32,000 bases of DNA from Promethearchaeota archaeon. GTDB lineage: Archaea; Asgardarchaeota; Lokiarchaeia; Sigyniarchaeales; SOKP01. Below, one piece after another: positions 5,318 through 24,623 of this stretch. Position numbers and translations under genes: made by a program. The notes below the pieces were generated by a model. The model made no database searches and was not told the origin of the DNA. It worked only from the letters and a program-made list of their open reading frames with translations. The DNA is taken from NCBI GenBank assembly GCA_030606485.1, contig JAUWGH010000004.1:270001-302000 (forward strand), written 5' to 3'. Numbering within the stretch: the stretch's first letter is position 1; each line of letters starts with the position of its first letter.

Positions 5318-5369
5318 TTTTTTCATATTTTTTATTTTAAATTTTAACTTCTTTTAATTATTAGGTAAA

Positions 5370-5873: not shown

Positions 5874-6011
5874 TTGTGCATTTCCACCATTGTCGCTAAT
5901 ATCAATAACATCATATATTGTAGATGTCTCATCTAAAAAAACAATTATATATTTTTCTGGATCAAACCTTTCCAATATTTTAATTAATTTTTTTATTTTT
6001 ATATTTACCAC
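5859..6011 (-). CDS. Possible small hypothetical protein (~50 aa), below the ORF-track cutoff
   Basis: Hand translation from GTG: VVNIKIKKLIKILERFDPEKYIIVFLDETSTIYDVIDISDNGGNAQLNIE*. The start is uncertain. Confidence 0.3.
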   Translation of the reverse strand: MVNIKIKKLIKILERFDPEKYIIVFLDETSTIYDVIDISDNGGNAQLNIE

Positions 6012-6089
6012 CTTTAATTTTAATTTTATTCATTCTTATATTATTTATTTCTTATAAATTATTCCCGGAACTTAATCTAATTACAATGT

Positions 6090-6166
6090 TATAAACACAT
6101 CTCTTTTAAAAATTTATTCCGAAAACGTTTACTATGAATATATATTAGAGAAATATAAAGGAAAAA
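6090..6166 (+). repeat. 77-bp dispersed repeat, copy 1
   Basis: 65/77 identical, ungapped, to 11207-11283 (hand alignment). Confidence 0.9.
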
Positions 6167-6272
6167 TCAAAAAAAAATTTCAAATTAAAGGATTAAAAAA
6201 TTATGCATTTATTAAAAAATAAAATCAATTTTTTTTTTAATTTAAAAGAAAATAGTTTGAATATTTGAAAAT

Positions 6273-8951
6273 TTATTTTAAAAATTTTTCTAAATTATTT
6301 TTCCGATGAAAAAAGTATCGGTGATTATATTTTGGTATATCAGTTAATAGAAGTCCAGTTTGTTTTTCATATTGTTTAACAATGTAATCTTGTATATTAT
6401 CGAATGAAACAATAAATGGAATTATTATTAATACAACATTGTTTTCTTCGCACAATTTTTTCTTAAGGAAATCACGTTCTTGTTGATCTATAAAATCTTG
6501 ATATTTTCTATGATAAAATGGATCAAAATGGTAGTGTTGCGGACCATTGTATTCAAATGCTAATTTTAATTGTTTATTAAGTCCATCGAGATGCATTTTT
6601 TTTTCCGTTTTATAATTTATCAACCATTTGGGTTTATTGGTGGGAAATTTAGCATTAAAAATTCGCTCAAAATAGCCACGACAATATCGTTCACTTTTAC
6701 CTTTTGAGCAATTGGGACACCAAGTTTTTCTTTTAATACTAGTAGGTTTAGCTTCCCATATATATCCACATTTCCCGCATTGCCATTTGAGACGTGTATG
6801 ATTATTGAAGTATTTTTTCGATAAACATTTACCAGGATACCCAGTTTCTTCAAGACCTCTTTTCTCTGCTAATTTTTGCATTTTTTCAATAGTTAATTTT
6901 AAGTTACCAGCGCATTTAAGACACCAACTTCCATAATTTTTTATGCTATCAGGTGTAGCTTCCCATATATGTCCACATTTCCCGCATTGCCATTTGAGAT
7001 TTGTTTTATTATTAATGTATTTTTTCGATAAACATTTGCCGGGATACCCAGTTTTTTCAAGTCCTCTTTTCTTTGCTAACTTTTGCATTTCTTCAATAGT
7101 TAATTTTTTTTTACAAGCGCATTTAGAACACCAACTTCCGTTATTTTTTATGCTATCAGGTCTAGCTTCCCAAATATGTCCACATTTCCCGCATTGCCAT
7201 TTGAGAGGTGTCTTATTATCGATGTATTTTTTCGATAAACATTTTCCGGGATTGCCAGTTTTTTCAAGTCCTCTTTTCTTTGCTAACTTTTGCATTTCTT
7301 CAATAGTTAATTTTTTTTTACCAGCGCATTTAGAACACCAGCTTCCTTTATTTTTAATGTCATTAGGCCTAGCTTCCCAAATATGTCCACATTTCCCGCA
7401 TTGCCATTTGAGATTTGTTCCACTATTTATGTATTTTTTCGATAAACATTTTCCGGATACTCCAGTTTTTTCTAGACCTCTTTTTTTTGCTAATTCTTGC
7501 ATATCTTTGATTGTATCTTTTTTCTTCATTAGTTCATCACATTTAGGATTTTTTTCAAAATATTCAAGTTGTGTCAGTTGTTGGAAATCAGTCAACTGAC
7601 TGAGCCGACTACATCTATATGGTATAGTCTTTAGATGGCGTTGCGAGCACCATTGCCATAGCAACTGCCTTAATTGACGGTCAATATTTCTAAAAATTTT
7701 TTTATCTTGACAAAATTGAAAGTAATTCCACCAACCACGAACGATTGCATTTAATCGTTTAGAAATTTCAGATGTTTCGGCGTGTTTGTTAAAATATAAA
7801 AATATCTTGATTCGATCGAGAAAATTTTTGATTGAATTTTTACTAGGAGTGCAATTGACGACGCAGTGATTTTTATATCTAATTTGTCGGATATTAAACC
7901 CTAAGAAATCGAAGCCCTTATCTGAGCGGATAATTTTTGTCTTACCTTTATGAAGATTTAAGCCTCTACTTTTTAAAAAATTTTTAATCTTAGGAAGTAC
8001 ATAGGATTCTAGAATTTCTCGTGAGGGTGTGATAACTATAAAGTCGTCTGCGTATCTAATTATTCGATATCCTTTTTTGTTTTCCGTTTGTTGGGAAGAA
8101 GAGATAAAGATTCCTTTAGATTCCTCCTTTTGGAATAATCTTTCTAAGCCATCAAGTGCAATATTTAAGAGTAAAGGACTAATAACAGCCCCTTGTGGAA
8201 GCCCGACATTTGTTTTTGAATTTCGACCTCGACTAAAAATCCCAGATTTTAGCCATTTTTCAATTAAAGGTTTAAATACCGAGATTTTATTAAGAACAAA
8301 CGCGTGATTAGTTTTTTCAAAGCACTTAGTAATATCAGCCTTTAATATCCAACAGAAATTTTCTGATTTGCTACTTGATTTGCCACTGGTTTGGATTTTT
8401 TCTTGAATCTCTTGAATGCTATCTTGGATTCGTTGGATTGCGTCATGTGCTCTACGATTTTTTCGATATCCGAACACATTTGGTTCAAATTTTGCCTCCC
8501 ATTCTGGTTCCAGAGCCATTTTTACGATTTTTTGCATAATTCTGTCTTTAACTGTAAAGATTACTATCGGACGTTTTCCACCATCTGGTCTCTGAATGTA
8601 AATGCGTCTGACAGATTGTGGTTGAAAATTTGTAAAATTTAACTCGTACAGTAATTGTTCAATTTTTTCAGGAGTGTTATACAATTTCCCGTCAATAACT
8701 GCTGGTTTTTTTCTTTTATAACTATACGAGAACCGAAAAGCCGAAAAGAACTCTCTACTCGCAAATAATTTTACAAAATGTGATCTTACAAGTAAATGTT
8801 GAAGTGACCTAACCTTTTTCCAGCGCTTTTCAGAACTCGCTCGGAATATACGTTTCTGGAGATGGTTAACTTGAGATTTAACCTTATGCCAGTTAACACT
8901 ATGCCAATCAAACTCAAGTCCGTTGGTCTGTTCAATGCCCAGCAGAGCCAT
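6273..8951 (-). CDS. Group II intron-type reverse transcriptase/maturase fused to four Zn-ribbon repeats and a Vsr/very-short-patch-like endonuclease
   Basis: RVT_N (WHSVNW...LQKRIFRA), RT motifs (VRRIYI...KRP, KADI, GLPQGAVISPLL, RYADDF, GFDFLGF) and domain X (LNAIVRGWWNYF). These are followed by 4x WQCGKCG.IWEA.P..I...WC..C and then HLDG...LAFEYNGPQHY...RDFLKKKLCEENNVVLIIIPF. Confidence 0.88.
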   Translation of the reverse strand: MALLGIEQTNGLEFDWHSVNWHKVKSQVNHLQKRIFRASSEKRWKKVRSLQHLLVRSHFVKLFASREFFSAFRFSYSYKRKKPAVIDGKLYNTPEKIEQLLYELNFTNFQPQSVRRIYIQRPDGGKRPIVIFTVKDRIMQKIVKMALEPEWEAKFEPNVFGYRKNRRAHDAIQRIQDSIQEIQEKIQTSGKSSSKSENFCWILKADITKCFEKTNHAFVLNKISVFKPLIEKWLKSGIFSRGRNSKTNVGLPQGAVISPLLLNIALDGLERLFQKEESKGIFISSSQQTENKKGYRIIRYADDFIVITPSREILESYVLPKIKNFLKSRGLNLHKGKTKIIRSDKGFDFLGFNIRQIRYKNHCVVNCTPSKNSIKNFLDRIKIFLYFNKHAETSEISKRLNAIVRGWWNYFQFCQDKKIFRNIDRQLRQLLWQWCSQRHLKTIPYRCSRLSQLTDFQQLTQLEYFEKNPKCDELMKKKDTIKDMQELAKKRGLEKTGVSGKCLSKKYINSGTNLKWQCGKCGHIWEARPNDIKNKGSWCSKCAGKKKLTIEEMQKLAKKRGLEKTGNPGKCLSKKYIDNKTPLKWQCGKCGHIWEARPDSIKNNGSWCSKCACKKKLTIEEMQKLAKKRGLEKTGYPGKCLSKKYINNKTNLKWQCGKCGHIWEATPDSIKNYGSWCLKCAGNLKLTIEKMQKLAEKRGLEETGYPGKCLSKKYFNNHTRLKWQCGKCGYIWEAKPTSIKRKTWCPNCSKGKSERYCRGYFERIFNAKFPTNKPKWLINYKTEKKMHLDGLNKQLKLAFEYNGPQHYHFDPFYHRKYQDFIDQQERDFLKKKLCEENNVVLIIIPFIVSFDNIQDYIVKQYEKQTGLLLTDIPKYNHRYFFHRKNNLEKFLK
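6708..7514 (-). repeat. Tandem array of four 207-bp (69-aa) Zn-ribbon coding repeats within the RT ORF
   Basis: The marker CCACATTTCCCGCATTGCCATTTGAGA occurs at 6766, 6973, 7180 and 7387, an exact 207-bp period. Confidence 0.95.
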
Positions 8952-9184
8952 TGTCTAACATCACAAACTGTTTATTTTCCAGAAAACTTTTTTTTCCGAG
9001 AGATTTTTATTTTTTATTTTATCCAAATTAAATTGAATTTAAAGATCAATTTTCTTTCATTATAATTATTTCAACTTGAAATTTGGAGGTTTAAATTATC
9101 AAGCAAAAAAAGCGTATTTAATTATTTGTAAGCTTTCGTTGACACTTGCTTCAAATTTGAAGATTTATTTTAAAGATGATAAAA

Positions 9185-9604
9185 TCACGATTTTATCTCA
9201 TTTGAGGTTTTAAAAAGTGATTTAATCAGAAATTCCCTCTCTGCCTCATTCTGCTCTATTAGAAAATCATTATATTTACCGAGATCCAAATTATTCATGC
9301 TCGGATATTTTTGGAAAAACTGAATTACAATGCTCATAAAAGGATATTTTTTTAAAAATTCAATAACTCGTTTTATACCTTTTTCTGTAATGAGATAATA
9401 TATCTCTCTTGAAGTTTTAAAAATTAAAATATAACCTTTCTTATTAAGGATTTTGCACCGGCTATAAAAATTTTGCCTAATTCCGCCAATTCTTTTCCGT
9501 ATTTCACGATAAGAAACTAATCTTTTCCTTTCCTTTATAAGAAATTCCATCAGACATAAAAGAATTTCAGTAGAATACGGCACTAAAAAGTTCAATCTTT
9601 TCAC
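9185..9604 (-). CDS. Winged-helix (MarR/ArsR-like) DNA-binding protein, upstream of and co-oriented with the RT fusion
   Basis: SYREIRKRIG...KILNKKGYI...YYLITEKGIKRV wing motif. Confidence 0.65.
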   Translation of the reverse strand: MKRLNFLVPYSTEILLCLMEFLIKERKRLVSYREIRKRIGGIRQNFYSRCKILNKKGYILIFKTSREIYYLITEKGIKRVIEFLKKYPFMSIVIQFFQKYPSMNNLDLGKYNDFLIEQNEAEREFLIKSLFKTSNEIKS

Positions 9605-10338
9605 AAATTTTTTTATTTAACTTTCTAAAACAAATTATAAAAATTCAGATAAAATAACTTCTTCATTTCATAGATAAATTTTGTACCTATTTTTTTTCAT
9701 AAGGATCAAATTATTCTTCCAACAGGTTTATAATGTTAAATTTCAATAGTTTATACAATTCTACTAATTATAAGAATCAAAAAACTTCGACTAAAATTAA
9801 AATTAAAGCTTTATAAATTAAATTGAATTAAGAAAATTTTCGAGTAATATCGATATCCAGTATTTTTTATTCTAAAATTTATAATAAAAAATTCCTCTGG
9901 AATAAGTTGTTTGAATTCCGAGGAATTTAGAATTAAAAAAATTATTGTTAGATTTAAATATTTTTTATAGGGATTTAAGTAAATTTCAAAAAGTTAAAAA
10001 TATTGCTCAAAGGTTAGATTTCTCTTATCTTTTCAAAGAATTCAGTAAATAGAAAGAAATATTTAAATATTTGATATTTAATGTTAATTATAGATAAAAA
10101 AATTAAAATTAATGTAATTCATGTCTGAATTATTAAACAATAAAAGAGTTATAACTATTTATGCAGGTATTCAAAGTCAAAGATTAATTCACGCTTAAAT
10201 CGGAAAATGGTAAAGTAATTACGAAATCGTATTGAAATGGAAATAATAGAAGAGAAATTAATGAAAAAAAAGATTATAAAATGTTATATATGTCATTAAA
10301 AGTATAAATTAATAACAAAAGAAAAAGAGATTGGAAAT

Positions 10339-11103
10339 TTGTTTAAAACTATTGTTATAACTTCACCTAACCTTGACAAAGTAGAAAAAACGAATGTCTT
10401 ATACATAAATCAGGGTTTCTCTAAAATTAGTATTTATTACTTAAAATTTGAAGCTTATATTGATGAAGCAAAGGATTTCGAATGTATAGTTAGAATTATA
10501 GATGAACTCGAACATCAAAAGGTGATTGAAAGAAAAAGATTTTTCAATAAAGCTAGTTTTATATTTAAATGTAAAGATGCCACTAGCCTCGATATAAAAG
10601 ATGCAGATGTTAAAGATGTATGTTTAATTTTCATTGAATATGAATTTCCTAATTTTAAAAAATCTGATCCACCGATTTATCTTGATATTGAAATCATTGA
10701 ATTTGATTCCAAAATAATTGATTCTATGAACACAAAACCCCAAATAAAGGAAGATATTTATGATTTAGTTGATAAATATTTATCTGATGATTTTAAAGGA
10801 GCAATAAGTGAGATTGGGACTATAGGAGAATATATAGCTAGGGAATTTGCTGAAAAAATTCATAATAAAAAGGTTGGTAATTTTCGAACTGCTTTAAATA
10901 TATTAACAAATGAAAAGAAATTAGCGCGGAAAAAAATAAATTATTTCTACTTAGGTTCTTTATTATGGCCAATATATTATATTAGAAATCAAAAATCTCA
11001 CCCATATCATAAGATTGAATTTGATAAATCTACAGCCAAAATTGCTATGGAAAATTTATCTAGTATTTTAAATTATTTAGCCAAAACGAAATTCAAATTT
11101 TAA
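10339..11103 (+). CDS. Protein with C-terminal HEPN domain (putative RNase effector)
   Basis: C-terminal helical region GAISEIGTIGEYI...YYIRNQKSHP contains the Rx4H motif. N-terminal region is unassigned. Confidence 0.6.
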   Translation: MFKTIVITSPNLDKVEKTNVLYINQGFSKISIYYLKFEAYIDEAKDFECIVRIIDELEHQKVIERKRFFNKASFIFKCKDATSLDIKDADVKDVCLIFIEYEFPNFKKSDPPIYLDIEIIEFDSKIIDSMNTKPQIKEDIYDLVDKYLSDDFKGAISEIGTIGEYIAREFAEKIHNKKVGNFRTALNILTNEKKLARKKINYFYLGSLLWPIYYIRNQKSHPYHKIEFDKSTAKIAMENLSSILNYLAKTKFKF

Positions 11104-11206
11104 ATTTTGGATTGTATTCATATATTTCCTCATTTGGAGTGTTCGCTATAAAACTCTCTCAAACAAATAAATTTTACAAAATTAAATATAATTCTAAAGG
11201 CAAAAT

Positions 11207-11283
11207 TATAAACTCATCTCTTTTAAAAGTTTATACCGAAAGCGTTTATTAGTTATATATCTTAGGTATATATAAAGGAAAAA
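11207..11283 (+). repeat. 77-bp dispersed repeat, copy 2
   Basis: Matches copy 1 (65/77) and copy 3 (57/77) without gaps. Confidence 0.9.
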
Positions 11284-11322
11284 GATTGGTATCTTTTAAT
11301 AAAGTTATATAATTGAGGGATT

Positions 11323-12960
11323 GTGACTAAAAAATCTCAAGAACTAATTGAGACCCTATTTAAGGGTTTAATGGAATCTCTAATACAAATAGCTAATGGA
11401 GAATATGTTTTTAAAAATAATCAAACAATTTATTCCACGAGTCTTTCTTACAACGGTCCAAACTCAGATCTCCCATTAGAAGAAGAAATATTTCAATATT
11501 TTGAGAAGGAAATTGTATCAAAAATTCCTCATGCATTACTTTTAATTAAAGGAAATCTCTCTATTGAAGTCTCAATTAACAAAGAAATAAATAATAAATT
11601 AAAAAAGACCCAAAGTGCAAAACGAGAGTTAGACATTTATAAATCTTTTAAAACCATATTCTTTCCTACAATGAATGAATATCTTGTTAAGTTGGGAAAT
11701 TCTGAGCCAGAATGGATATATTTAGCAGAAAAAGATTGGAAAGTAGATACTAAAGATCAAAATAAAAAAAAATTTGAAAATGGAAATTATATAAAATATA
11801 TTAGAGGAAAGTCTTGGATTAGTATGGAGATTGAAGGAACAGCGATTTCTTTTTTAAAAGATGATATTGATTTCTTTTTTAATAATTTTAAATTTAAAAA
11901 TCCTATTTCTGTTGGGACAATTATCTTACCCCAGACAGACATTTCATTAGATGAGTTTAGGTCAAAATCAAAAACTAATAAAAAAAGTTATTATACGACT
12001 GATTTATATTCGTCCGAGCAAAAGAAAAGGTTTATTCAAAAATTACTTGAAAATTTTATTGAGTGGTATCCAAAATTTATTAATGACAATTTTCCTAGAA
12101 TTCGTAAATCTTTTAAATTATATCAGAATTTACCAGTAAAAATTATATTAAGTTTTGATAAACCATTTAAAGATGCTTATGAGCATCAAGATCTCTGGTT
12201 TTTTTGGGGTGTTGAGAAATTACCGAATGATTCCAAAAATATTGTAGAAATGGTTGAAGGGTATGATGCTAACTATGATGAGAATAAACATTTCATCGCA
12301 AGGTCAACTTCAACAAATTATTTGATTATTGATAATCAATATAATGCATTTCCATTTACATACAAATTTATAAGAGAAGAGTTAGAGGATATTTTAGAAG
12401 GATTTGAAAACGATTCAATATTTGATGAGATAAAACCTTTTCAATCGTCTCTAGAAGGTTGGATTCAAATAATATTAGATGCTGAGAAAAGAGGGGGAGA
12501 AGATTATAATATCGAGCTAAAATCAATACCAACTGAATCTAAGGAAGGAGATGGTTCAGGAAATGACATTTATGGGCATATAAATGGATTTGAAAACGAA
12601 GAGGGTGGCTATATATTTATTGGTGTCGATGAGAACAAAATTGGCAGAGAAAAAATTGTTGGATTAGAGGGATATCTCAAGAGTAAAAAAAAGACATTAG
12701 ATCAATTAGTACGAGAAATTAGACAAAAATGCGTTAATTATCTTAAAAACGACAATTATCGTATCCAAACTAGAACAGATGGTGGAATTTCTTTAATAAG
12801 AATTACTATTCGTTCAAACAAAGGTGGACTTAATTGGTTTTACACCAAAAAAGGATTACGCATAACATATGTTCGAAGAAATAGAGAAAAAATACCAATG
12901 CCAGAGCATGAAATTGAAGAGAGATTGAGTAAGAAATATAATAAGGCACTAATTAAATAA
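11323..12960 (+). CDS. Protein with C-terminal AlbA_2/Schlafen-like domain
   Basis: NIELKS...INGFENEEGGYIFIGVDE...IVGL pattern in the last ~170 aa. The N-terminal ~370 aa are unassigned. Confidence 0.7.
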   Translation: MTKKSQELIETLFKGLMESLIQIANGEYVFKNNQTIYSTSLSYNGPNSDLPLEEEIFQYFEKEIVSKIPHALLLIKGNLSIEVSINKEINNKLKKTQSAKRELDIYKSFKTIFFPTMNEYLVKLGNSEPEWIYLAEKDWKVDTKDQNKKKFENGNYIKYIRGKSWISMEIEGTAISFLKDDIDFFFNNFKFKNPISVGTIILPQTDISLDEFRSKSKTNKKSYYTTDLYSSEQKKRFIQKLLENFIEWYPKFINDNFPRIRKSFKLYQNLPVKIILSFDKPFKDAYEHQDLWFFWGVEKLPNDSKNIVEMVEGYDANYDENKHFIARSTSTNYLIIDNQYNAFPFTYKFIREELEDILEGFENDSIFDEIKPFQSSLEGWIQIILDAEKRGGEDYNIELKSIPTESKEGDGSGNDIYGHINGFENEEGGYIFIGVDENKIGREKIVGLEGYLKSKKKTLDQLVREIRQKCVNYLKNDNYRIQTRTDGGISLIRITIRSNKGGLNWFYTKKGLRITYVRRNREKIPMPEHEIEERLSKKYNKALIK

Positions 12961-13320
12961 AGTTTTTTTTTAATTTATTTTATGTATCGTATCAATTTTA
13001 GAAATAAGAGACTCTGCATAATTGGATTCCTACGTAACATCAGTTGGCAACCGCTTTAATTAATTCAACTCTTTTTTTAGGTATTGCCTTAAATAATCGA
13101 TGCTCCCTTAAATTCGGAAAAAAAATTTTCCCTCCGTTTAAAATATCGAAATTGGTAAAAAATATTTTATTTGATTAATCTAAAAAGAGTTGTCCATCTT
13201 TTTCTAGCCTTTTATTAACATATCTTAGTGTATCAGAATTTTAATTTCTGGATTTTTTTATTTATGTATTTATTATTTTATTCAATTTAATTGAATTATA
13301 TAATCGTTATTGTATTAATT

Positions 13321-14412
13321 TTAATCTCGATAATATTGATTGCATCTATAACATCTTAGATAATTTTGATGAAGTTGCATTTCTTGTCTGCAATCCACAC
13401 AAAAATTCTTAAGTTTTGCCATAAATCCTACAAAACAAAAATAACACATTTTATATTTTGATGAAATTGGTATTCCACAATCAATACATTGTTTTGAGAA
13501 TTCTCGTTCTTCCCCTAAAATATTAATATTTTTAATAAGATATGTAAGTCCATTATCAAACGAATTTTCTAGAAATTGAATGATTTTACTATGGTTCATT
13601 TTTTTGTGAACCTTCCCTTTTTCAATAATATTGAGAGTGTAGAGAATAAATCTATTCCGAAGGTTCATATATTTATAAGGGTTGTTGACATACTCTTTTC
13701 GTCTTTTTGGAAAAACAGGTTTGAATTTTCTCTTTTGCCTGAAATGAAATACTTCATTGAGAAAATCCAAGAACTCTTTATCTATTTTATTTTGTTCGCA
13801 TAATTCTAAGATTTTTTCATAAATTTTAGTTAAGGTAGTCTTCTTATATTCTTTTTGAAATAGCACCACTAAATAATATGAAAATTTGAATATCGCTTTT
13901 GAAAATATCATTTCTGCACTTGGTATATCGTTTCCATTAATCTCTATTCTCAAACTCTTATTCAAATAATAGAAGGCTCTTCTCAACAGATCATCGTAGT
14001 CGTCGTCTTTATAAGTAACATCTAGTAATTTATTACGGAAATCTTTGCCAAAGATAATTTTAGAATTGTATTTAAGATCAATAATAGCCCATTTATAGTT
14101 TGAAAAGGAATATTTCTTAAACTCTTTCTCATTAGAAAGAGCCGAGAATAAATTGTAAATAATTGAAATTTTTTTGTCTTCGAATATTTTCTCTTCAAAA
14201 CGCGCATTACTGTATTCCAAGGATTTAAAATTTAGTGCTTCTTGATCAAATGTTTTCACGAACACAAGAACATCGATATCATTTGGTTTAAAGTTATTAG
14301 TATCTTCATGAAAATATGAGCCAATTCCAAATATACTTACTAAATTTTCCTTCAGTTTATCTTTCACATAAAGGAAGACATCATATAACAACGAATCCTC
14401 TGTTTTTATCAT
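13321..14412 (-). CDS. Pol-beta-type nucleotidyltransferase with helical (HEPN-like) domain and C-terminal double Zn ribbon
   Basis: GIGSYF...NDIDVLVF (GS...DxD), a helical bundle LLRRAFYYL...KAIFKFSYYL, then CIDC..CYFC and CVDC..CYRC. Confidence 0.7.
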   Translation of the reverse strand: MIKTEDSLLYDVFLYVKDKLKENLVSIFGIGSYFHEDTNNFKPNDIDVLVFVKTFDQEALNFKSLEYSNARFEEKIFEDKKISIIYNLFSALSNEKEFKKYSFSNYKWAIIDLKYNSKIIFGKDFRNKLLDVTYKDDDYDDLLRRAFYYLNKSLRIEINGNDIPSAEMIFSKAIFKFSYYLVVLFQKEYKKTTLTKIYEKILELCEQNKIDKEFLDFLNEVFHFRQKRKFKPVFPKRRKEYVNNPYKYMNLRNRFILYTLNIIEKGKVHKKMNHSKIIQFLENSFDNGLTYLIKNINILGEEREFSKQCIDCGIPISSKYKMCYFCFVGFMAKLKNFCVDCRQEMQLHQNYLRCYRCNQYYRD

Positions 14413-14566
14413 TGAATTTAGATTTTTTTGAGAAATTCTGATCAGCCTTTTATTTTCAATTCAGAAATATACGGACGCATAATATGAAAATTGCGTGGAG
14501 TTATTTTATTAAAGTAAAAAAAGCCAACTATTTAAAGCTTTGTATATAAATAGTTCATTAAATTTT

Positions 14567-14600
14567 AATAATAATAATTATAATTATAATTATTATTATT
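14567..14600. repeat. Perfect 34-bp AT-only palindrome
   Basis: AATAATAATAATTATAATTATAATTATTATTATT equals its own reverse complement (checked by hand). Confidence 0.85.
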
Positions 14601-14821
14601 TTATTATTAGTATAAATAAATGAAAGCTTAAACGTTATATCTTCTTGATTATAAAGTTCTCATGCAATTGAATTAAAATTCAAAATATGCTTTAGCCTAT
14701 ACATTTTTTTATCATCAGAATTTATATAATCAAAAAACTCACTATTCTTACTATCCATCTTCATCTTATAGAAATAAAATATTTTTTCTTGAAATCATAG
14801 AACTTTTTAAAATTGTAATTA

Positions 14822-14898
14822 TACAAACTCATCATATTTAAAAGTTAATTTTCAAAGCGAATGATAAGTATAGATTTTTAGTAAATATAAAGGAAAAA
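14822..14898 (+). repeat. 77-bp dispersed repeat, copy 3 (more diverged)
   Basis: 57/77 ungapped identity to copy 2. Conserves AAACTCATC, TTTAAAAGTT, AAAGCG and ATATAAAGGAAAAA. Confidence 0.8.
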
Positions 14899-14952
14899 TG
14901 ATATTGGTACTTGTATAGCATTAAATTGTAATTTTAAAATTTAGATAAGGCG

Positions 14953-16551
14953 ATAAAAATAAGGTCAAGAAAAAATTTTACAGGAGATCTTCTAGATTAC
15001 GACTGGTTAAAAAAAAAAAATACCAGGGTACGAGATTCAGATGGTCTTTTAATAGTTAAATGGTTTTTAAAAATTAAAAAACCCGATTTTAAAACTTTAA
15101 ACTTATGGATATTACAAGAGGCTGAAGAACTTAGAAAAAAGAGAGAAAAATCAAAAGATAAAATAAATAAAAATTTTGAAGAAAAAATTAAGATAAAAGA
15201 GTGGGAAAAGTTTTGTGAAAATTCTCAAATAAAAGAGGAAATTTGTAAACGTTTAAGATATGACTATAGCCCATCAGTAGAATTTGAATCAAATAAATTA
15301 AATCAATCTATAAAAATATCAAGATATGAATTAATAAAAAAAATACGAGACGAATTATCTTCGAAATATAATTATAATGATTATGACGATCTAGGATTAT
15401 ATGGGGGTTTATATTATCGAACACTTGGATTATCAAGGGCGTTAGGAGGTAATTATATTGCAGATGATGTAAAATCCCATCTTAATGTTAGAGTCATGTG
15501 GCTTTTAAAGCAATTTATTCTAAAGAATGCAATAGATACAAATACTCAAAAATATGCCTTAATTCGAGGTTTAATGCAAGATATTATACTCGCTCAATCA
15601 TGTTTAATTAGATTAAGGGCAGGATTAAATGTATTTCATGTAATATCTGTTCTTGGATGGGAAATTTTTAATTTCGATGGATTATGTCTTTACTTTGAAA
15701 CATTGACAAATACTATAATTGTAAGTATAAGATCATTTATAGATAAACTATGGAGGATGACACACAATTTTTTTTTAAATAAAGACAAAAAAATTACAGC
15801 TACAATTCAAAATGAAATACCCAACTGCAATAAATTTTCAATTACGAGTCTTGAGCGAGTTTATTCTATAATATCTACATTACATAACGTTCATAAAATT
15901 TCCCCTTATCAAAGAGATAGACATAATTTTGGATTAATGTTTGATTTTACTAATGCAGATACATTATTTCTAATTAATGAATTAAGAAACAATTATATTC
16001 ATGGTGAACCTAGTCCAAATATATCTGGCGTTATTAGACGAGATTATATTACTAGCGAGGAAACTCCTAAGAGAAGCAGTAGATATGATATATATATTTC
16101 CACAACTCCATTAATTAAAATTAAGAATTTGGATAATAGCGGATATAAAGATTTTAGAAAATTTTTAGAAAAACAAGGGTTGGATTTATCTAAGCTTGAT
16201 TATTGGGATGTTTTGGAAAAGCGTATATTATGGCGTGCTCCCCCTGAGATTCAAGATACAATCAAATTTGATCATTTTCCAGATCTTTATTCATCTTCCA
16301 TTCCTTTGGTTGTTAAAGAGATTACACATATAGAAAGAGAAGAAAAAGGAAATATGGAAGTCATACAATATTTTGAGCATGATAAAAAAATCCTAGAATG
16401 TATGATTACACAATTAAAAAGTGCAGAAATTTCTGGTTATTATAAAATTTCTCTTTATAATTTAAGTGATTGTATGTGGTCTTTGTTTGATACCTTAAAG
16501 ACATTGTTGAAAGTCTTTCTAATGAAAAAATTATATAATAAAGAATTTTGA
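14953..16551 (+). CDS. HEPN-domain protein (Cthe_2314-like); the real ORF probably extends ~180 codons upstream of the first ATG (15496)
   Basis: The frame is stop-free from 14938. It contains FETL...SIRSFIDKL and ELRNNYIH (Rx4H). The ATA at 14953 is a candidate non-canonical start. Confidence 0.6.
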   Translation: MKIRSRKNFTGDLLDYDWLKKKNTRVRDSDGLLIVKWFLKIKKPDFKTLNLWILQEAEELRKKREKSKDKINKNFEEKIKIKEWEKFCENSQIKEEICKRLRYDYSPSVEFESNKLNQSIKISRYELIKKIRDELSSKYNYNDYDDLGLYGGLYYRTLGLSRALGGNYIADDVKSHLNVRVMWLLKQFILKNAIDTNTQKYALIRGLMQDIILAQSCLIRLRAGLNVFHVISVLGWEIFNFDGLCLYFETLTNTIIVSIRSFIDKLWRMTHNFFLNKDKKITATIQNEIPNCNKFSITSLERVYSIISTLHNVHKISPYQRDRHNFGLMFDFTNADTLFLINELRNNYIHGEPSPNISGVIRRDYITSEETPKRSSRYDIYISTTPLIKIKNLDNSGYKDFRKFLEKQGLDLSKLDYWDVLEKRILWRAPPEIQDTIKFDHFPDLYSSSIPLVVKEITHIEREEKGNMEVIQYFEHDKKILECMITQLKSAEISGYYKISLYNLSDCMWSLFDTLKTLLKVFLMKKLYNKEF

Positions 16552-16695
16552 ATTTTCTCTATAAAAACCTCAATTTCTATTTTAAAAAATCATTTTTCAA
16601 ATTATAGAAAATTTCTTCAGGAAATTTTTTCAAATTATCATAAGAATTATTTAGTTTCTAGTTGTGATAGATACAAAATATTATTTGAAAAACAG

Positions 16696-16743
16696 GAAAT
16701 TCAAGGACTTTTTATAAATAAATTAAGTAAGGTGATAATGTAA
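16696..16743 (+). promoter_or_regulatory. Conserved upstream/TATA block of ATPase copy 1
   Basis: TTCAAGGACTT(TT)TATAAATAA.TTAAGTAA.G.GATAATGTAA is shared with 26615-26661. Confidence 0.55.
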
Positions 16744-16798
16744 TAAGAGGATATAATAAGGTTAAATAACAGTTAAATAAACGCAAAAAATAGGGCAT

Positions 16799-18415
16799 AT
16801 GACTAAATATAAAAAATACACTGAAATAAAAAAGAGCGAAGAATATGATATAATCGATTTACCAAGCCCTTCTAGGAGAGATTCACGAAGAGGAACGATT
16901 AAAATTGGTAAATCTTTAGTAGTAAAAAAATCATTATTATTAAAAAGGCCTCGGTATAAAAAGAAACATAAGTTTTATCTAAGTGTAGATGATCTTCACA
17001 GACATGTTTTCATTAGCGGTTTAACGGGAGTAGGAAAGACTAACTTCGTTAAGAATTTTTTGTTGGAATTTAAAAAAAAATTTGATGTAACGTTTCTTAT
17101 TGTTCAAATTAAGAATGATTTCGACTTTATTAGGGATTATTTTAAAGATCTTGAAATATTTTCTCCTGGCGAGAATTTTTCCATTGATATTTTTAATCCC
17201 GGTAAAATTGATCCCTTAATACATGCTGAAAGAATATTTGAGATGTTAAAAAATAGCAGATTAATTGATTCTTCAAGTGAGTTTTCCCCCCAAATGGAGA
17301 AAGTTCTTGTGGATGTTATAACAGAAGTCTGTAGAAGTAAAGGTCTAAAAAATTGGCAAAAATTTTACGAGATTTGTAATGAATATTTTAAGAACCATAG
17401 AAATGAGATTCCGAAATTGGACCAAACTTTTATTAGTGTAAAAAATAGAATTCGTAGGATGTCAGAAGGGCCATTAAAAAAAGCATTAAGCAATGAAAAT
17501 TTAATACCGATTGGCAAAATCTTAAATAGTAATAGTATTTTGAATTTAAGCTCAATTGTTCGCCTTGGGGGGGATAAAGAAGATGTTTATTTCTTTTTGA
17601 TGTTAGTTTTAAAGAATATTTGGGACTATAACATTTCTGCAGGCATTTCTAATAGGTTAAAGCATCTTACAATTGTCGATGATGCAACGTATTTTATGCC
17701 AAGAGAAAGTGCATCGAATGATAAGATTAGCACATATCTTGAAGATATTGCATTGCTACAGAGAGGTACGGGTGAAAGTTTGATCACTATTGCTACAAGA
17801 CCTGATATTAGCGAAAATATTTTAGCTAATTCAGGTGTAGTTATCGGTTTTGAAACACATTTTAAGAAACATAATTTTGCTGAACTATTAAATTTACCTG
17901 AAGAGAAGTATATGTATCTTTCCTTATTAGAGAAGGGACAATGTATTATTAGAACACCCTCTATTAAAATACCCTTTCTTTTAAATATTCCTTGGATTAA
18001 AGATTCTAACAAATTGAAAAAAAAAACGCCTGTGACTCCAAAATTGAGAAGAATCAATAAAAAAATTAAAATGAAACACCTTAATTTTCGACTCGATTTT
18101 ACTCGAAATTGCTTTCGTTCAGGGGACTATTCCAGTTGTTATTTTATTTGTTTAGAAATAATTGACTATATTGTTGATCAACTTGTATATCGATTAAATT
18201 ATGAATTTGGAGGTGTAGAAAAACTTGTTTTTGACATTGAACAAAACAATTTTTCGGATCGCATCAAAATTTATCCTGAGCTAAAAATAATTTCAAACAA
18301 TATTAATAATATTGAACAAAAAGAATTAATTTCTCGCAGTGACATTTTAGAATTATTTGAACAAATTTGCAGTATCTTCAGTAAATATAATTATGTTATA
18401 TTTAACACTCTTTAA
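16799..18415 (+). CDS. HerA/FtsK-superfamily (DUF87-like) ATPase, copy 1
   Basis: Walker A HVFISGLTGVGKT and Walker B LTIVDD (deviant DDAT). Ends in a ~110-aa helical C-terminal domain. Confidence 0.75.
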   Translation: MTKYKKYTEIKKSEEYDIIDLPSPSRRDSRRGTIKIGKSLVVKKSLLLKRPRYKKKHKFYLSVDDLHRHVFISGLTGVGKTNFVKNFLLEFKKKFDVTFLIVQIKNDFDFIRDYFKDLEIFSPGENFSIDIFNPGKIDPLIHAERIFEMLKNSRLIDSSSEFSPQMEKVLVDVITEVCRSKGLKNWQKFYEICNEYFKNHRNEIPKLDQTFISVKNRIRRMSEGPLKKALSNENLIPIGKILNSNSILNLSSIVRLGGDKEDVYFFLMLVLKNIWDYNISAGISNRLKHLTIVDDATYFMPRESASNDKISTYLEDIALLQRGTGESLITIATRPDISENILANSGVVIGFETHFKKHNFAELLNLPEEKYMYLSLLEKGQCIIRTPSIKIPFLLNIPWIKDSNKLKKKTPVTPKLRRINKKIKMKHLNFRLDFTRNCFRSGDYSSCYFICLEIIDYIVDQLVYRLNYEFGGVEKLVFDIEQNNFSDRIKIYPELKIISNNINNIEQKELISRSDILELFEQICSIFSKYNYVIFNTL

Positions 18416-18572
18416 AATCTAATTATTTTTATAAAGATTAGAATCATTCGGCGTCCTTCAAACTTGAGTTATTTTTTGAATTAAAAGATATAAAAATGTA
18501 AAAAATGTTAAAATACTATTTAATAAAAATTTCAAAATACAAATAAACAACAAGATTTAGGGTTATAGAAAT

Positions 18573-18632
18573 ATGAGAAAACAAGTAATTGGGGGATATT
18601 GGAAGATTTACTGGTTCAGTTCTATTATATAA
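18573..18632 (+). pseudogene. tpiA: 5' stub of a triosephosphate isomerase gene
   Basis: MRKQVIGGYWK versus MRKQVIGGNWK of tpiA at 25598; 29/35 nt identical. Homology is then lost and a stop follows at codon 20. Confidence 0.75.
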
Positions 18633-18724
18633 GGTTACTAGGGGTTCGAAAATTTATAAGCTTGTGTTGTTTCCCTAGTATTTATTAATTTTGAAAAGTA
18701 TAGTAAAAAAACTCTCAGACAATC

Positions 18725-19813
18725 TTAATTTATTTTTTTATTTGTTGATCTTAAACGTCGAATAGTTATATTATTTATTGTTAATGATAATGTTTTTTGC
18801 CTTTCTATCCGTTCTTTAATTCTGGAATCATTTGATTCAATTTCTTTTTTAATAAAATGGTTTTGAAATTCAAGAGTTTGAATTTTTATTGCCTTTAAAA
18901 ATTCCCATCCTACAAAATTCATTTGACTCTGTGGTATCCACAAATCTACTTTTTTGGAAGCGTATACTTTTAAATACCCATTATGGTAAAAAAAGATTTT
19001 CCCAATTCCAATCCCTAATGAATTTAGATGGAATATATTCCTAATATAAGGTTTATCAAACAAATCTGGTCTATAATTAAATAACGAATTTAAACCAAAA
19101 ATGATTGGTTGATAAATCTCAGTACAATTCCTATCGAAGTCTATATCAATTAATGGGTAGGAAATTGCTTCACTTCCCTTTTCAAATAAAAACCCTGATT
19201 GTTGATCTGGAAATAACAATGTTTTCGAAGGATAAGGTATTCCCATACCTCTAGATAACAAAAAATAACTTGAAATATTAATAAATGCAAAATTATTCAC
19301 ACTTAAGGCAAAGTAAGTCGGTAAAAATTGAAAAGCGGGCATTTCAGTTCCCATTATATGTAATCGATTCGACCGTTTTAAACTTCTAAAAATCAACAAT
19401 AATCGATCTTTTATGTTAATACCTTGATTTATATAAAAATTTGGATTTATACCAAAAAAGTTCTTATACATATAGATACTTGCAAGCCAAAGACCGATTC
19501 TAATTTTATCAAACCAACTCAATAATACATAAAAATCAGTCGAGCTTAATTTATTTTCTGACAGTAAATTTTCTATTATATTCTTTGCTATTGATTCTAA
19601 ACGTGAATATCTATTATTACATTCTTCACATGAAGGAAATACGAACTTATCAAAACTGAATGATTTATTTATTAACCTCCCATCTTCATAAAATGGTCCA
19701 AAAATTGCCTCACGATTCGGATCTCCAGTTAATTAAATTAACCATCTTGGAATAACGTGTTCATTCGTTTTTTTTATTGGTGTTTGGCCACAAAAGATAC
19801 AAAATCTTTCCAT
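18725..19813 (-). pseudogene. HNH-type nuclease gene (362 codons) broken by one in-frame TAA at codon 27
   Basis: Hand translation MERFCIFCGQTPIKKTNEHVIPRWLI*LTGDPNREAIFG...FPSCEECNNRYSRLESIAK continues in frame into track ORF 18725..19522. TAA is at 19735-19733. Confidence 0.75.
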
Positions 19814-19819
19814 TTAATA

Positions 19820-21808
19820 TCAACTTTTTACATTTTGTCTTATTGAGGAAAAAAGCCAAGGGTCTAAACATTCTTTTATTTTATCTTTTTGCTGAGGTAA
19901 CAGATGTTTGGTAAAGCTATTAATATTATAAATATAGTTCTTATTAATTTTATTTTGAAAATTTTTAAAAAAACCTTCATCACAACTTGTTACGATTATG
20001 GGAATCTGATATTCTTTGCAATACTCTATTAAGAAATCAACGAGATTTTTTTTTATTATAGAATCAAGATGTAATTCTCCGTTTTCAATAATTAATGATA
20101 AGTTGAATCCAAGATTTTTTAAATAGATAAATAGACATAATCTAAAACTTATGTCGTATATTCTTTTTTCCATTCCGCTTAAACCTTCAAAATCAATCGA
20201 CTCTAACCTTGGAACAAGTCCTCTGCTTCCAAAATCTAAAACGCTTTCTCTTCCCGATATTTTTTCAATAAACTTGGTAAATTTCTTATTAAACTCAATA
20301 AAAAACTTAACTCGTTTATCGAGGTTATATTTATAGAGTTTTTCTTGAATTTCTTTTAATTTATCAGTGTGTTTTTTTACATCTTCTCTCTCTTGGGTTT
20401 TTATATTTATTATATCTTCATTGAAATTCGATTTTTTAACAACTAAATTTCTAAATTTTTTAATTTCAGAATTAACATTTCTTTTTTTTTCCTCTAAAAG
20501 TTCAATTTTTTTTCTAATTCTTCTACGCATATTATTGAATAATTTTTTTTTAACGTGCTCTGCTTTTAAAAACGATTCAATTCTCTTATCAATCTCTTGT
20601 AATTCTTTTTGCTTAGATTTAATTACATCCTCAATTAATTCCAACTTTTTAATTAATTCTTTCTTGTAAGTTTGAAAATTAACTATAGATTTCTTTTGTT
20701 TATTAATCACTTTCTCGCATTTAATACACTTATTCGACTTAAATAATTCATGAGCTTTTTTAGCACATACAGAACAGAGGATATCTTTAATATATTTTAT
20801 TTGCCATTCGTTTCTCCTCAAATTTTCATTTACTTTTATTAAATCATCTTGTATTATAACCTTAGATTCCCTTTTTCTGTCTATTTCTGCTGAAAGATCT
20901 CTCATGTTAGAGGTCATTCTTGAATATATTTCAAAAGAAGTGTTGTCCTCAACTAATTTATCATAATAGATGTTTCTACGAGAATATAGATACTCTAAAA
21001 TTTCATTGATTTTATTTTTTTTATTTTTTAATCCATTAATTTTATCTTGTAATTTCTTTATATCTGGAATATTTTCAATTTTTTCTTTTTCTGCAATTAA
21101 ATAATGAATAGAATCTTCTAAATTTCTTTTAATTGTGTTATCCTTTGAAATCATATCATTTATCCTTTCAATTAAAAGGTTAATAATAGGTTGTGCTAAT
21201 AATTGATTGAACAATTTAATTCTAAATTGATCACCATCTTCTCCTGAAACTTTATTTGATAAGAGAAAATTCTCTGGAGTCTCGCATAATATCATAATTT
21301 CAAAAACATTAGTAAACGTTTTAGTAGATTCAATCCCAAAAAGTTTTTTCTTTATAAAATACTCATTTTCGAAATAACTAATTTTACCCTCTGGATTAAT
21401 TCTTAATTTTGATTTACGATATTTAGATACTTCCCTGAATATATTGTAATCAACACCATCTTTTTCAGCTGTCAAATTTAATATCAAATCTCTATTTTCC
21501 GCGATATCTAAACTTTTTAGCCCTCTATCGTGTTTTCCTTTTAAAGTGAATTTTAATAAATCTACTATAATCGATTTTCCAGATGTGTTAGAGCCAATTA
21601 AAAGAGTCAATCCATTTGGATTGAATTTCAACTTTAGTTTCTGATTAAAAAGCCCATAATTTTTTATTGAAAATTCGAGAAGCTTTGGACATGTAAATTT
21701 ATCAGGTGCTCTTTTTATCACTAAGTCTGAATTGATAATATCAAGGCTGTCGTTATCATCTTTAAGTTCATTATTTAACCATTGTATTATATCATTTATT
21801 TGAGTCAT
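19820..21808 (-). CDS. Rad50/SMC-like ABC ATPase with long coiled coil and central Cys pairs (Zn-hook-like)
   Basis: Walker A GSNTSGKS, coiled coil with CSVC and CIKC, signature LSGMEK, deviant Walker B/D-loop IIENGELHLD. Confidence 0.8.
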   Translation of the reverse strand: MTQINDIIQWLNNELKDDNDSLDIINSDLVIKRAPDKFTCPKLLEFSIKNYGLFNQKLKLKFNPNGLTLLIGSNTSGKSIIVDLLKFTLKGKHDRGLKSLDIAENRDLILNLTAEKDGVDYNIFREVSKYRKSKLRINPEGKISYFENEYFIKKKLFGIESTKTFTNVFEIMILCETPENFLLSNKVSGEDGDQFRIKLFNQLLAQPIINLLIERINDMISKDNTIKRNLEDSIHYLIAEKEKIENIPDIKKLQDKINGLKNKKNKINEILEYLYSRRNIYYDKLVEDNTSFEIYSRMTSNMRDLSAEIDRKRESKVIIQDDLIKVNENLRRNEWQIKYIKDILCSVCAKKAHELFKSNKCIKCEKVINKQKKSIVNFQTYKKELIKKLELIEDVIKSKQKELQEIDKRIESFLKAEHVKKKLFNNMRRRIRKKIELLEEKKRNVNSEIKKFRNLVVKKSNFNEDIINIKTQEREDVKKHTDKLKEIQEKLYKYNLDKRVKFFIEFNKKFTKFIEKISGRESVLDFGSRGLVPRLESIDFEGLSGMEKRIYDISFRLCLFIYLKNLGFNLSLIIENGELHLDSIIKKNLVDFLIEYCKEYQIPIIVTSCDEGFFKNFQNKINKNYIYNINSFTKHLLPQQKDKIKECLDPWLFSSIRQNVKS

Positions 21809-21822
21809 AAATCATTTACCTA

Positions 21823-22269
21823 TTAATATCTTGAGAGAAGTGTATATTCCGGATATTTAGAATAAACTATATTAATTAATTCCTTAAGAGATAACCCCTC
21901 AAGGTTAGAGATTATATTTTTTATTTTATCTTGAGTTTTATTATTTAATGAATCCTTAATTTTAATAAATCCTTTATCAGTAATTGCGTAAATAATTGTT
22001 TTTTCATCTCTATCATAAAAACTATGGATAAATCCATTTTCTTCTAAGAATTTTAAATCTTCCTCTATTTCTTTTGAATATGGACCATAATGTTTAGGAT
22101 GGAAATTAAAATAAACATCAATACTCACTTCTTTTTCTAATAGAAACAGATATTTCATCAAGCGAGTTTTGCCTTTAATCTGCTTAAAGTTAAATATTAA
22201 TTGTAGGATAATATCTAACTGTTTGTTTCTAATCTTTTCCATATTTAAATCTTCTCCCTTAATTTTCAT
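21823..22269 (-). CDS. YwgA/DUF4065-like winged-helix protein
   Basis: GKTRLMKYLFLL...HYGPYSKEIEEDLKFLEENGFI...YAITDKG...IVYSKYPE. Confidence 0.65.
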   Translation of the reverse strand: MKIKGEDLNMEKIRNKQLDIILQLIFNFKQIKGKTRLMKYLFLLEKEVSIDVYFNFHPKHYGPYSKEIEEDLKFLEENGFIHSFYDRDEKTIIYAITDKGFIKIKDSLNNKTQDKIKNIISNLEGLSLKELINIVYSKYPEYTLLSRY

Positions 22270-22970
22270 TTTGTTATATTTTGAAACATTTTGAATAAAT
22301 CAGGATTATTAATTCTCAACCCTACTTCGCTATTTACTTCCCACATATTTTCATTAAAAATTATATAGATGTGATTTTTTTCTTTTCGTACATCTTTTAA
22401 AAACACAATTGATAAATTTGTATCATTTTTTTTAATAAATTTAAGTTCGGTCTTATTAAGATAATACTCTGATATCCTAGTTTTTATTATATTATCATAG
22501 ACTTCATTTTTTCCAACAAAAATGATAGACCCAGGTAAACATTTTTCTATATCTCGGCTCAATTCACCAATATCCTTAAATGTGAGTATAAAGGATACTT
22601 TATTTTTATCTTTTGCTTTTTCCCATTCAGCAATCAAGTCTGCTTTGTTGTTATCCAATAGTTCTAAATTAAATTTTGATATATCGTGAATTTCTTCAAG
22701 GATTTTATCTAAGTTAATTATGTCTAAATAGTTATCTTCTTGTAGAATTAAATCATTATTTTTTAATTGTTCAATTGGGGTACTCAAATCGTAATGTTTC
22801 CACAATTTTTCTTTAGGATAAAAAGTATTTAATTGCGAAATGAGATCTTTTCGCTTAATTTGTCGAAATTTCATAAGAACAACTAAAATTTTTGAAGAAT
22901 CTTGTGAAATATTATAATGATTTTTTAAGATTTCTCGAATACTTTCTTGTTTAGTAATTATATCGGACAT
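22266..22970 (-). CDS. TrmB-like winged-helix transcription regulator
   Basis: N-terminal wHTH (ISQDSSKILVVLMK...LKNNDLI) and C-terminal GLRINNPDLFKMF. Overlaps the next gene by 4 bp. Confidence 0.5.
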   Translation of the reverse strand: MSDIITKQESIREILKNHYNISQDSSKILVVLMKFRQIKRKDLISQLNTFYPKEKLWKHYDLSTPIEQLKNNDLILQEDNYLDIINLDKILEEIHDISKFNLELLDNNKADLIAEWEKAKDKNKVSFILTFKDIGELSRDIEKCLPGSIIFVGKNEVYDNIIKTRISEYYLNKTELKFIKKNDTNLSIVFLKDVRKEKNHIYIIFNENMWEVNSEVGLRINNPDLFKMFQNITK

Positions 22971-23256
22971 ATTAATGATTTTATCTTTTTTTCTTTTCTA
23001 TAGAATATTATAGTTAAATTTGATAATAAATATTGTTTTAAATGATTTCCAAGAAATTGAGTTCTAGATTTTTGAAATAACTAATTTGTTGATTTTCTAT
23101 CAAATTAATTTGTTATTAAAAAATTAGTTATTTATTTTAAAATCAGAAAAATGCTTATTTTTTACATCCAACTAATTCTTTTGATGAAAAAACTAGGAGA
23201 TAAGACATTTTAAGTTTAATTGTTTTCATTATATCATAAATTGGAGGTTCATTATA

Positions 23257-24144: not shown

Positions 24145-24623
24145 AATTTCACTTAAAACTTCATTTATAAGAATAATTTTTCGCACTTTTTATAATTCTT
24201 TCTTTAAAAATTTCGCACGATTAGTATTAATTTCTTAAAAATTTCATATTGAATAATTTTATCTATTAAATAGCCGCTCCAAAAATCAAGTAGATTATAA
24301 TATTCCAAATATTTTAGATATATTGATTTGGAAGAATTATTGAGACAAATTGAAATTTGTATGTAAGGAAAATTAAATAGTATTTATATTTTTAAACTTG
24401 ATAATATGTTAAAAGAGATTGATAAATGGTTGGAAATGACTTCTAATGTGAAGCCCAGAAAGTCTCCATTATTTACTTCTGAAAAAAGAGATTTCATATA
24501 TCGAGTTTATAAAAAATATTTGATACAACGGATTTAATTGTCTTATAAAAAACCAATTTCTTATTTATTATAGAAAATAAATTCATTAAAGTTATTTTTA
24601 TTGTAAGTAAATATTATAATATT

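Follow-up and report, generated by a model that had tools for sequence, protein, structure and literature searches.

A group II intron-derived reverse transcriptase outside any intron, fused to a CapR/Vsr-type homing endonuclease in an Asgard archaeon

Closest described systems and composition of the fused gene

Reverse transcriptases (RTs) of group II introns that bear a nuclease use an HNH domain, and how R2-type long interspersed nuclear elements (LINEs) and the Prp8 core arose from group II introns has long been asked. Nucleases of another kind were described in 2025 in phage group II introns, where a module of three to five CapR/DUF4379/DUF723-like domains (~60 amino acids) followed by an EDxHD/Vsr-like domain (~100 amino acids) was termed a large unrecognised outgroup of homing endonucleases; it was located in group I introns of phages and also in four of their group II introns, where it takes the place of the RT (PMC12350094). 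LINEs with a restriction-like endonuclease (RLE) and the large fragment of Prp8 carry an RT, a thumb, a linker with Zn/knuckle motifs and a PD-(D/E)XK nuclease, in that order (PMC5678591). The RT G2L4 of Pseudomonas shares ~21.5% identity with a group II intron RT; it has YIDD, AQG and an RT3a plug, lacks a nuclease and acts in double-strand-break repair (PMC12337344). Here we analysed a stretch of 32,000 nt (the window; contig JAUWGH010000004.1, positions 270,001 to 302,000) from a Promethearchaeota (Asgard) metagenome-assembled genome that is congeneric with isolate 2R3_4, 3.75 Mb in size and 100% complete. It contains a gene, hereafter the RT-nuclease gene, in which a group II intron-derived RT/maturase stands out of its intron and is fused to a complete CapR/Vsr-type homing endonuclease. 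For this fusion we found no published precedent, and almost no other genome has the combination.

An earlier note on this DNA had read the gene as a single intact open reading frame (ORF) with a YADD RT, RVT_N and domain X, in which homology switches just after QRH to four Zn-ribbon repeats and a nuclease. Pfam matches and the alignment with intron-encoded proteins (IEPs) bore out this layout, which is as follows (all features on the minus strand).

6273..8951, minus strand: whole RT-maturase-Zn-ribbon-nuclease ORF, 892 amino acids, stop-free, stop codon at 6273-6275
8655..8906, minus strand: RVT_N (N-terminal extension/RT0 region), residues 16-99, Pfam E 1.8e-17
7890..8594, minus strand: RVT_1 (RT fingers/palm), residues 120-354, Pfam E 8.8e-37
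7629..7832, minus strand: GIIM (maturase/thumb domain X) with RGWxNYF, residues 374-441, Pfam E 2.3e-13
7515..7616, minus strand: linker, residues 446-479; IEP homology stops just past QRH
6696..7514, minus strand: four CapR/DUF4379-like repeats (helix plus CxxC...CxxC treble-clef/Zn-ribbon), 68-69 amino acids each
6342..6695, minus strand: Vsr/EDxHD-like PD-(D/E)XK nuclease core, residues 753-870, from alignment and AlphaFold (AF2) model

The RT half is of the group II intron type, as the earlier note had it. Promethearchaeota group II IEPs (~499 amino acids, En-minus, from introns of the Rfam D1D4-7 type) are 46-49% identical to the window RT over residues 1-440, and the window protein shares with them RVT_N, RT1-7 with YADD (residues 300-303, nt 8043-8054) and PQG, the RGWxNYF of domain X and an aligning leader of ~55 nt. 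All RT catalytic and domain X motifs are intact. In contrast to the IEPs, the window gene is single-copy and outside any intron, its C-terminal D region is replaced, and it reaches 281.2 bits with TIGR04416, the NCBIfam group II RT/maturase equivalog, which is below the cut-off of 300. Its RT also branches outside all sampled intron-borne IEPs and, in comparison with them, carries ahead of RT0 a stretch specific to its own lineage, REFFSAFRFSYSY. Like the G2L RTs, it is chromosomal, derived from group II, without intron RNA and stripped of the D/En (DNA-binding/endonuclease) domains. Unlike G2L4, it has a nuclease, keeps YADD and PQG and lies much nearer to mobile IEPs; a G2L4-type repair RT was ruled out by these two motifs and by the far greater closeness to mobile IEPs.

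Behind the linker, the Zn-ribbon array matched CapR (E 7e-18) and DUF4379 (E 9e-18) over four stretches each and contains eight CxxC pairs, two per repeat; its DNA is a 207-nt tandem repeat of 3.7 copies with 89% matches. The repeats are presumed to form a DNA-recognition array. No Pfam match to HNH was obtained in the 892-amino-acid protein. The linker itself is common only to the window fusion lineage and to a split locus of another genus (G021, see below), and the free-standing homing endonuclease gene (HEG) of genome G060 aligns from residue 473 only.

The C-terminal 148 amino acids matched nothing above the Pfam cut-off. DUF559 was dropped as a candidate family because Pfam returned no match to it, and relatives of the domain gave just weak matches to DUF2726 (15 of 36). 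The nuclease family is large, with 8550 representative clusters at E<=0.001. Residues D789, E800, G803, H806, D827 and K830 are invariant in a 36-member alignment and are all found in the window protein. Foldseek with the nuclease model (pLDDT 92 for the C-terminal domain) matched nothing in PDB at E<=0.001, so the fold was identified only through VIA-align, in which the wide structural comparison placed on top Vsr (1cw0, Z 9.4), the catalytic domain of I-Bth0305I (3r3p, Z 9.3) and the DUF559-type NGO0050 (3hrl, Z 8.2). A sequence profile of the nuclease domain gave nothing meaningful against PDB sequences, and searching ESM Atlas features with the full-length protein gave no usable match. Neighbours in the ESM Atlas were giant-virus and phage proteins and bacterial proteins bearing DUF4379/CapR/DUF723 repeats. 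The structural scores and these neighbours agree with the phage/giant-virus character that had been ascribed to the tail.

The window Zn-ribbon/Vsr-like half thus has the four repeats and the Vsr-fold domain of the CapR-like/EDxHD-Vsr-like homing endonucleases, of which I-Bth0305I is the solved EDxHD representative, and it belongs to the large family of PMC12350094. The earlier statement that no named system has this architecture therefore holds for the fusion, for which no precedent was found, but not for the Zn-ribbon/Vsr module, which was described in 2025. Known members are free-standing or the sole ORF in group I/II introns, and in phage group II introns the HEG stands unjoined where the RT would be, whereas in the window it is joined in frame behind an RT/maturase. 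The family is spread over phages, giant viruses, bacteria and archaea. Free-standing copies are plentiful in related genomes, with many matches to residues 470-892 in G002, G003, G019 and G040, and the closest nuclease relatives (P0125 and P0126) are free-standing. The source genome has a single Zn-ribbon/Vsr-like paralogue, a 644-amino-acid protein with a long charged N-terminal region (L002 1504-3438; contig C2 of G000, ~105143-107077), which is very divergent and forms the longest branch of the nuclease tree.

No intron RNA, whether domain V or D1-D4, was detected at the locus, in line with the earlier note, or elsewhere in the genome. Rfam gave no match at the gathering score in the window, nothing group II-like appeared at E<=10 in positions 5300-10400, and RF00029 (Intron_gpII) had no match in the whole 3.75-Mb genome, of which the window RT is the only RT. 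As a positive control, all ten intron-borne relatives (L009, L010 and L016-L023; proteins 39-48% identical) gave an Intron_gpII domain V match beside the ORF, and several also showed an upstream D1-D4 match. A leader and a further gene lie in front of the ORF.

8952..9006, minus strand: leader of ~55 nt, 5' of the ATG, aligning with the leader that intron-borne IEP genes have inside the intron, on the domain IV side
9185..9604, minus strand: weak winged-helix gene, 139 amino acids, directly upstream on the same strand, co-conserved in L007 and G003

The leader block GTGAnGTTAGACrATG is common to the window, to two further loci without an intron (L007 and L005) and to nine intron-borne relatives. 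Since the leader aligns with an intron-internal one, the RT gene left an intron with its own translation-start region. The 139-amino-acid gene fills the space expected for intron domains I-III, and between the window and L007 it is 88% identical in amino acids and itself under purifying selection (dS 0.30, dN/dS 0.18; synonymous substitution rate and ratio of non-synonymous to synonymous rates). The RNA of the 233-nt upstream intergenic region folded no better than shuffles (z -0.91) and gave no support for an upstream non-coding RNA. Terminal repeats, a 3' tail or a structured flank were not found around the RT-nuclease gene.

Occurrence, relatives and selection

The same in-frame fusion was found at the same locus in isolate 2R3_4 (G003, GCA_019058135.1; L004), with three repeats and 96-98% nucleotide identity, and in L007, a Logan contig assembled from a different sample, where four repeats are present and overall amino acid identity is 83%. 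The RT/Zn-ribbon junction is real: contigs of four separate studies bridge 7511-7616, and short-read contigs break only within the repeat array. Outside these cases the architecture is highly uncommon. Among 185,579 genomes the fusion occurred in one other species, a congeneric one, and the arrangement RT-linker-HEG was present in 3 of the 161 genomes of the class. Within the best 120 of 1070 long Zn-ribbon/nuclease proteins, RT domains were found only in this lineage (P0002). No adjacent Vsr-like nuclease was seen beside the ~90 other IEP loci scanned.

The source genome has one full copy of the gene. A 95-nt fragment elsewhere (L003 1504-1598; contig C4 of G000, ~214303-214401) is 80% identical to RT codons 48-78, and it sits just upstream of a 176-amino-acid ORF. 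Because it matches the lineage-specific REFFSAFRF region, it is a trace of a second copy of the window RT lineage.

The most informative relative is G021, from another genus of the same family. Here an RT 48% identical to the window RT is followed by a two-repeat Zn-ribbon/Vsr-like gene 58-60% identical to that of the window, and the linker is homologous to the fusion linker, while free-standing endonucleases lack it. Compared with the window, the G021 sequence is interrupted once by a stop codon and once by a frameshift in a run of A, each within the ~30-codon linker, which results in a 442-amino-acid RT ORF and a 261-amino-acid endonuclease ORF 10 nt apart. That both lesions fall in ~4% of the length (2.1 kb) suggests that each half was kept open. 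No intron RNA was detected at this locus. The pair lies within a 7.9-kb insert that is missing from a sister genome. These results indicate that the RT-HEG pair has been conserved long enough for its RTs to diverge to 48% identity between genera, and that it is carried on variable islands.

In the RT tree, a branch supported at 100/99 set the window protein (P0001), the G021 RT and P0067, all without introns, apart from every intron-borne IEP; a long-branch caveat applies. P0067 (L005 6001-9315) is a group II-type RT of 1104 amino acids with a different C-terminal tail of 660 amino acids; no intron RNA was detected at its locus. The tail matched no Pfam family and had no close relative in 5.8 billion proteins, and P0067 as a query for other long RT fusions also returned no close relative. 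By eye, Cys pairs and a possible HNH-like stretch close to the end can be seen in it. The three RTs appear to form a small Asgard clade that has left its introns and in which the C-terminal module can be exchanged.

Several further observations were made at these loci. For both P0067 (L005 3808-5463) and G021 (L118 11161-12903), the gene immediately upstream of the intron-less RT, in the same orientation, encodes a HerA-like (DUF87) ATPase. These ATPases share 53% identity with one another and ~42% with the two HerA-like genes of the window (16799-18415 and 26717-28432), and the ATPase-RT pairing may be conserved. Between the HerA-like gene and the G021 RT, at L118 ~10877-11011, Rfam gave a 135-nt tRNA-like match (37 bits) where ARAGORN called no tRNA; a 79-nt piece of this region is 90% identical in a sister genome, and the match may be an intron-containing archaeal tRNA gene used as an insertion site. 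Adjoining the G021 endonuclease, a 426-amino-acid ORF (L118 7169-8449) has many partial copies (73-85% nucleotide identity) on at least seven contigs of a sister genome, G010, and is probably a transposable element.

Selection was estimated between the window and L007. Results showed purifying selection. In the RT segment, dN/dS was 0.22 at a dS of 0.07 (19 synonymous and 17 non-synonymous changes; binomial p 2e-5); the corresponding values were 0.25-0.30 at a dS of 0.85-1.0 for the Zn-ribbon array and 0.29 at a dS of 0.39 for the nuclease. Between the alleles the array was the most divergent segment: nucleotide identity was 63-72% there and 95-99% in the RT, and within the nuclease domain it rose from 78% at the beginning to 95% close to the end. 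As identity drops in the array and is high on both sides, the central DNA-reading segment seems to have been exchanged, the partner probably being a paralogue. Such an exchange would fit an altered target specificity.

The accessory island

The same-genus genomes G001 and G002 join ~5891 straight to ~24581, and the intervening 18.7 kb are therefore an accessory island.

5892..24580, no strand: strain-variable island, 18.7 kb, with the RT-nuclease gene as its left-most gene

The empty allele runs from CCACCATT directly into CATTAAAG, with clean ends. The island ends have no direct repeat and no target-site duplication, and no integrase was detected in the island. Empty-site contigs were present in two metagenome studies that also carry the gene. 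The RT-nuclease gene lies 380 nt from the boundary, and a homing endonuclease at the edge could in principle drive the spread of the island. The other island genes encode an AlbA_2/Schlafen protein, a HerA-like ATPase, an LmuB-like SMC ATPase operon and several proteins without an assigned family.

In this setting the gene resembles defence RTs (DRT/UG, Abi, retron and CRISPR-associated RTs), which combine an RT with a variable C-terminal effector in accessory islands with defence-like genes. PADLOC gave generic RT or group II-like models as the best matches (1.8e-51), and the best UG/DRT model was UG17 (1e-21). No non-coding RNA, known partner gene or CRISPR array was found for the window locus.

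Two features of the island and its edge are noted in passing. An AT-rich direct repeat of 91 nt occurs three times (6076-6166, 11193-11283 and 14808-14898), the later two copies being 81% and 68% identical to the first; each copy ends in ATATAAAGGAAAAA. The first copy is directed antisense into the RT-nuclease gene at its 3' end, and the second is just upstream of the AlbA_2 gene, on account of which the repeat may be a promoter or a leader. At 6194-6203, a contig of one marine-sediment run has ~1.6 kb extra between the island edge and the RT-nuclease stop codon, showing that this short flank varies between populations.

Function, alternatives and meaning of the fusion

We consider it about an even chance (probability ~0.5) that the gene is an ex-intron RT maintained in a two-part module with a site-specific nuclease. 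A Promethearchaeota group II intron-encoded RT/maturase would have lost its ribozyme, with ~55 nt of intron-internal leader kept, and would have had its C-terminal DNA-binding/endonuclease tail swapped for a whole free-standing homing endonuclease made of CapR-like Zn-ribbons and a Vsr/EDxHD PD-(D/E)XK domain. In genus g1 the halves make up a single polypeptide, in genus g7 a pair of neighbouring ORFs. We infer the enzymatic steps and the biological role from the parts and their setting: a long DNA site would be read by the four Zn-ribbon repeats, the Vsr-like domain would cut it, and the RT, with its intact motifs, may act at or near the break on an RNA that is still bound, possibly its own leader. 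The most likely role would be in genetic conflict, as a defence or as a means for the island to propagate selfishly, because the gene rides strain-variable islands with defence-like genes.

A maintained function is favoured by the purifying selection, by the conservation across two genera and by the clade of intron-less RTs. Several results weigh on the other side. The selection estimates come from a comparison of two close alleles. In the L007 allele TAG replaces W233 in the RT, and the RT can thus be lost without immediate loss of the locus. Full fusions are confined to a single genus and a single locus. Conservation at the G021 locus is stronger in the HEG half than in the RT half; domain X of the G021 RT reads SGW in place of RGW, and its ORF lacks a standard start codon at the homologous N-terminal position. 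In the nuclease-domain tree, which forms a basal polytomy, the window and G021 endonucleases are not resolved as sisters; the shared linker is the sole argument for their single origin. Known defence families gave no match beyond generic RT models. The earlier note had offered a domesticated RT-nuclease or a new retroelement; selection and conservation favour a maintained function, and the nonsense allele, the split version, the single copy and the fixed locus oppose an active retroelement and leave room for a decaying relic.

The relic explanation is the strongest of the alternatives, though we think it somewhat unlikely. It holds that a free-standing CapR/Vsr-type HEG inserted in the 3' end of an IEP gene and destroyed the D/En tail, that the ribozyme decayed, and that just the endonuclease half is active, spreading itself and perhaps the island by DNA-level homing with the RT as a slowly decaying passenger. 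The same HEG family invades phage group II introns (PMC12350094), and it is abundant as free-standing genes in related genomes, P0125 and P0126 among them. The nonsense allele of L007 and the split G021 pair, with its better conserved HEG and its degraded domain X and start codon, speak for a passenger RT. The position of the gene 380 nt from a precise island boundary that has neither target-site duplication nor integrase, together with empty-site alleles in the same metagenomes, also suits homing. However, the RT itself is under purifying selection (dN/dS 0.22, p 2e-5), and in the window every catalytic and domain X motif of it is intact. The linkage of RT and HEG has persisted down to 48% RT identity, and the G021 lesions are both in the linker rather than random over 2.1 kb. 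P0067, a groupmate in the RT tree, has kept an intron-less RT with a different tail, and no HEG of this kind stands beside any of the ~90 other IEP loci fetched.

An autonomous intron-less retroelement appears distinctly unlikely. The Vsr-like domain would nick a target chosen by the array, and the RT would copy its own mRNA, recognised via the leader, from the 3' OH; this would be target-primed reverse transcription as in the R2/RLE-type elements without long terminal repeats (non-LTR elements), here without a ribozyme. In its favour, RLE LINEs and the large fragment of Prp8 show a parallel succession of RT, thumb, linker, Zn motifs and PD-(D/E)XK nuclease (PMC5678591), R2 structures appear among the weak Foldseek rows, and the intron-type leader is retained. 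The 95-nt fragment (80%) of the lineage-specific 5' part of the RT elsewhere in the genome (L003), and an RT unusually uniform between alleles (dS 0.07 vs 0.30 in the neighbouring gene), point the same way. Against this, each genome has one full copy, which in all three assemblies occupies the same locus, and only 3 of the 161 genomes of the class have the arrangement. Terminal repeats, a 3' tail and a structured flank were not found, and the stray L003 piece is an internal 5' fragment, not a 5'-truncated copy. The best structural matches are Vsr and I-Bth0305I, not the R2 or Prp8 nucleases. The likeness to R2/RLE non-LTR proteins and Prp8 is architectural resemblance only. The window RT is of the group II type, its nuclease matches Vsr/EDxHD rather than RLE and the gene is single-copy; we treat the relation as an analogy until shown otherwise. 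It is a long shot that the gene encodes a working ribozyme-free Asgard retroelement enzyme, in which a Vsr-like nick at an array-read site would prime a group II-type RT on leader-recognised RNA.

Finally, a joining of separate genes by a chimeric contig or a collapsed repeat is extremely improbable, for although short-read contigs break inside the 207-nt array and the repeat number is 3 in L004 and 4 in the window and L007, the junction lies outside the array, is bridged in four studies and keeps the same frame in three assemblies, and the linker has a homologue in another genus.

Both halves of the gene are known and their combination is new. R2-type LINEs and the Prp8 core are likewise laid out as a group II-type RT joined to a restriction-like nuclease, and a swap to such a nuclease is seen here in an Asgard archaeon. 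If the gene is a relic, it records a homing endonuclease invading an archaeal group II intron, as in the phage cases. If the ribozyme-free retroelement were true, prokaryotes would have an equivalent of the R2/RLE-LINE and Prp8 plan that arose directly out of a group II intron protein, within the closest lineage to eukaryotes, and this would show that the natural replacement of HNH by a restriction-like nuclease is possible. If both activities of the module cooperate, the protein would be a small natural enzyme able to cut at a long DNA site and to carry out reverse transcription at that spot, its DNA-reading array being modular and quick to change; this would make it of interest for genome writing.

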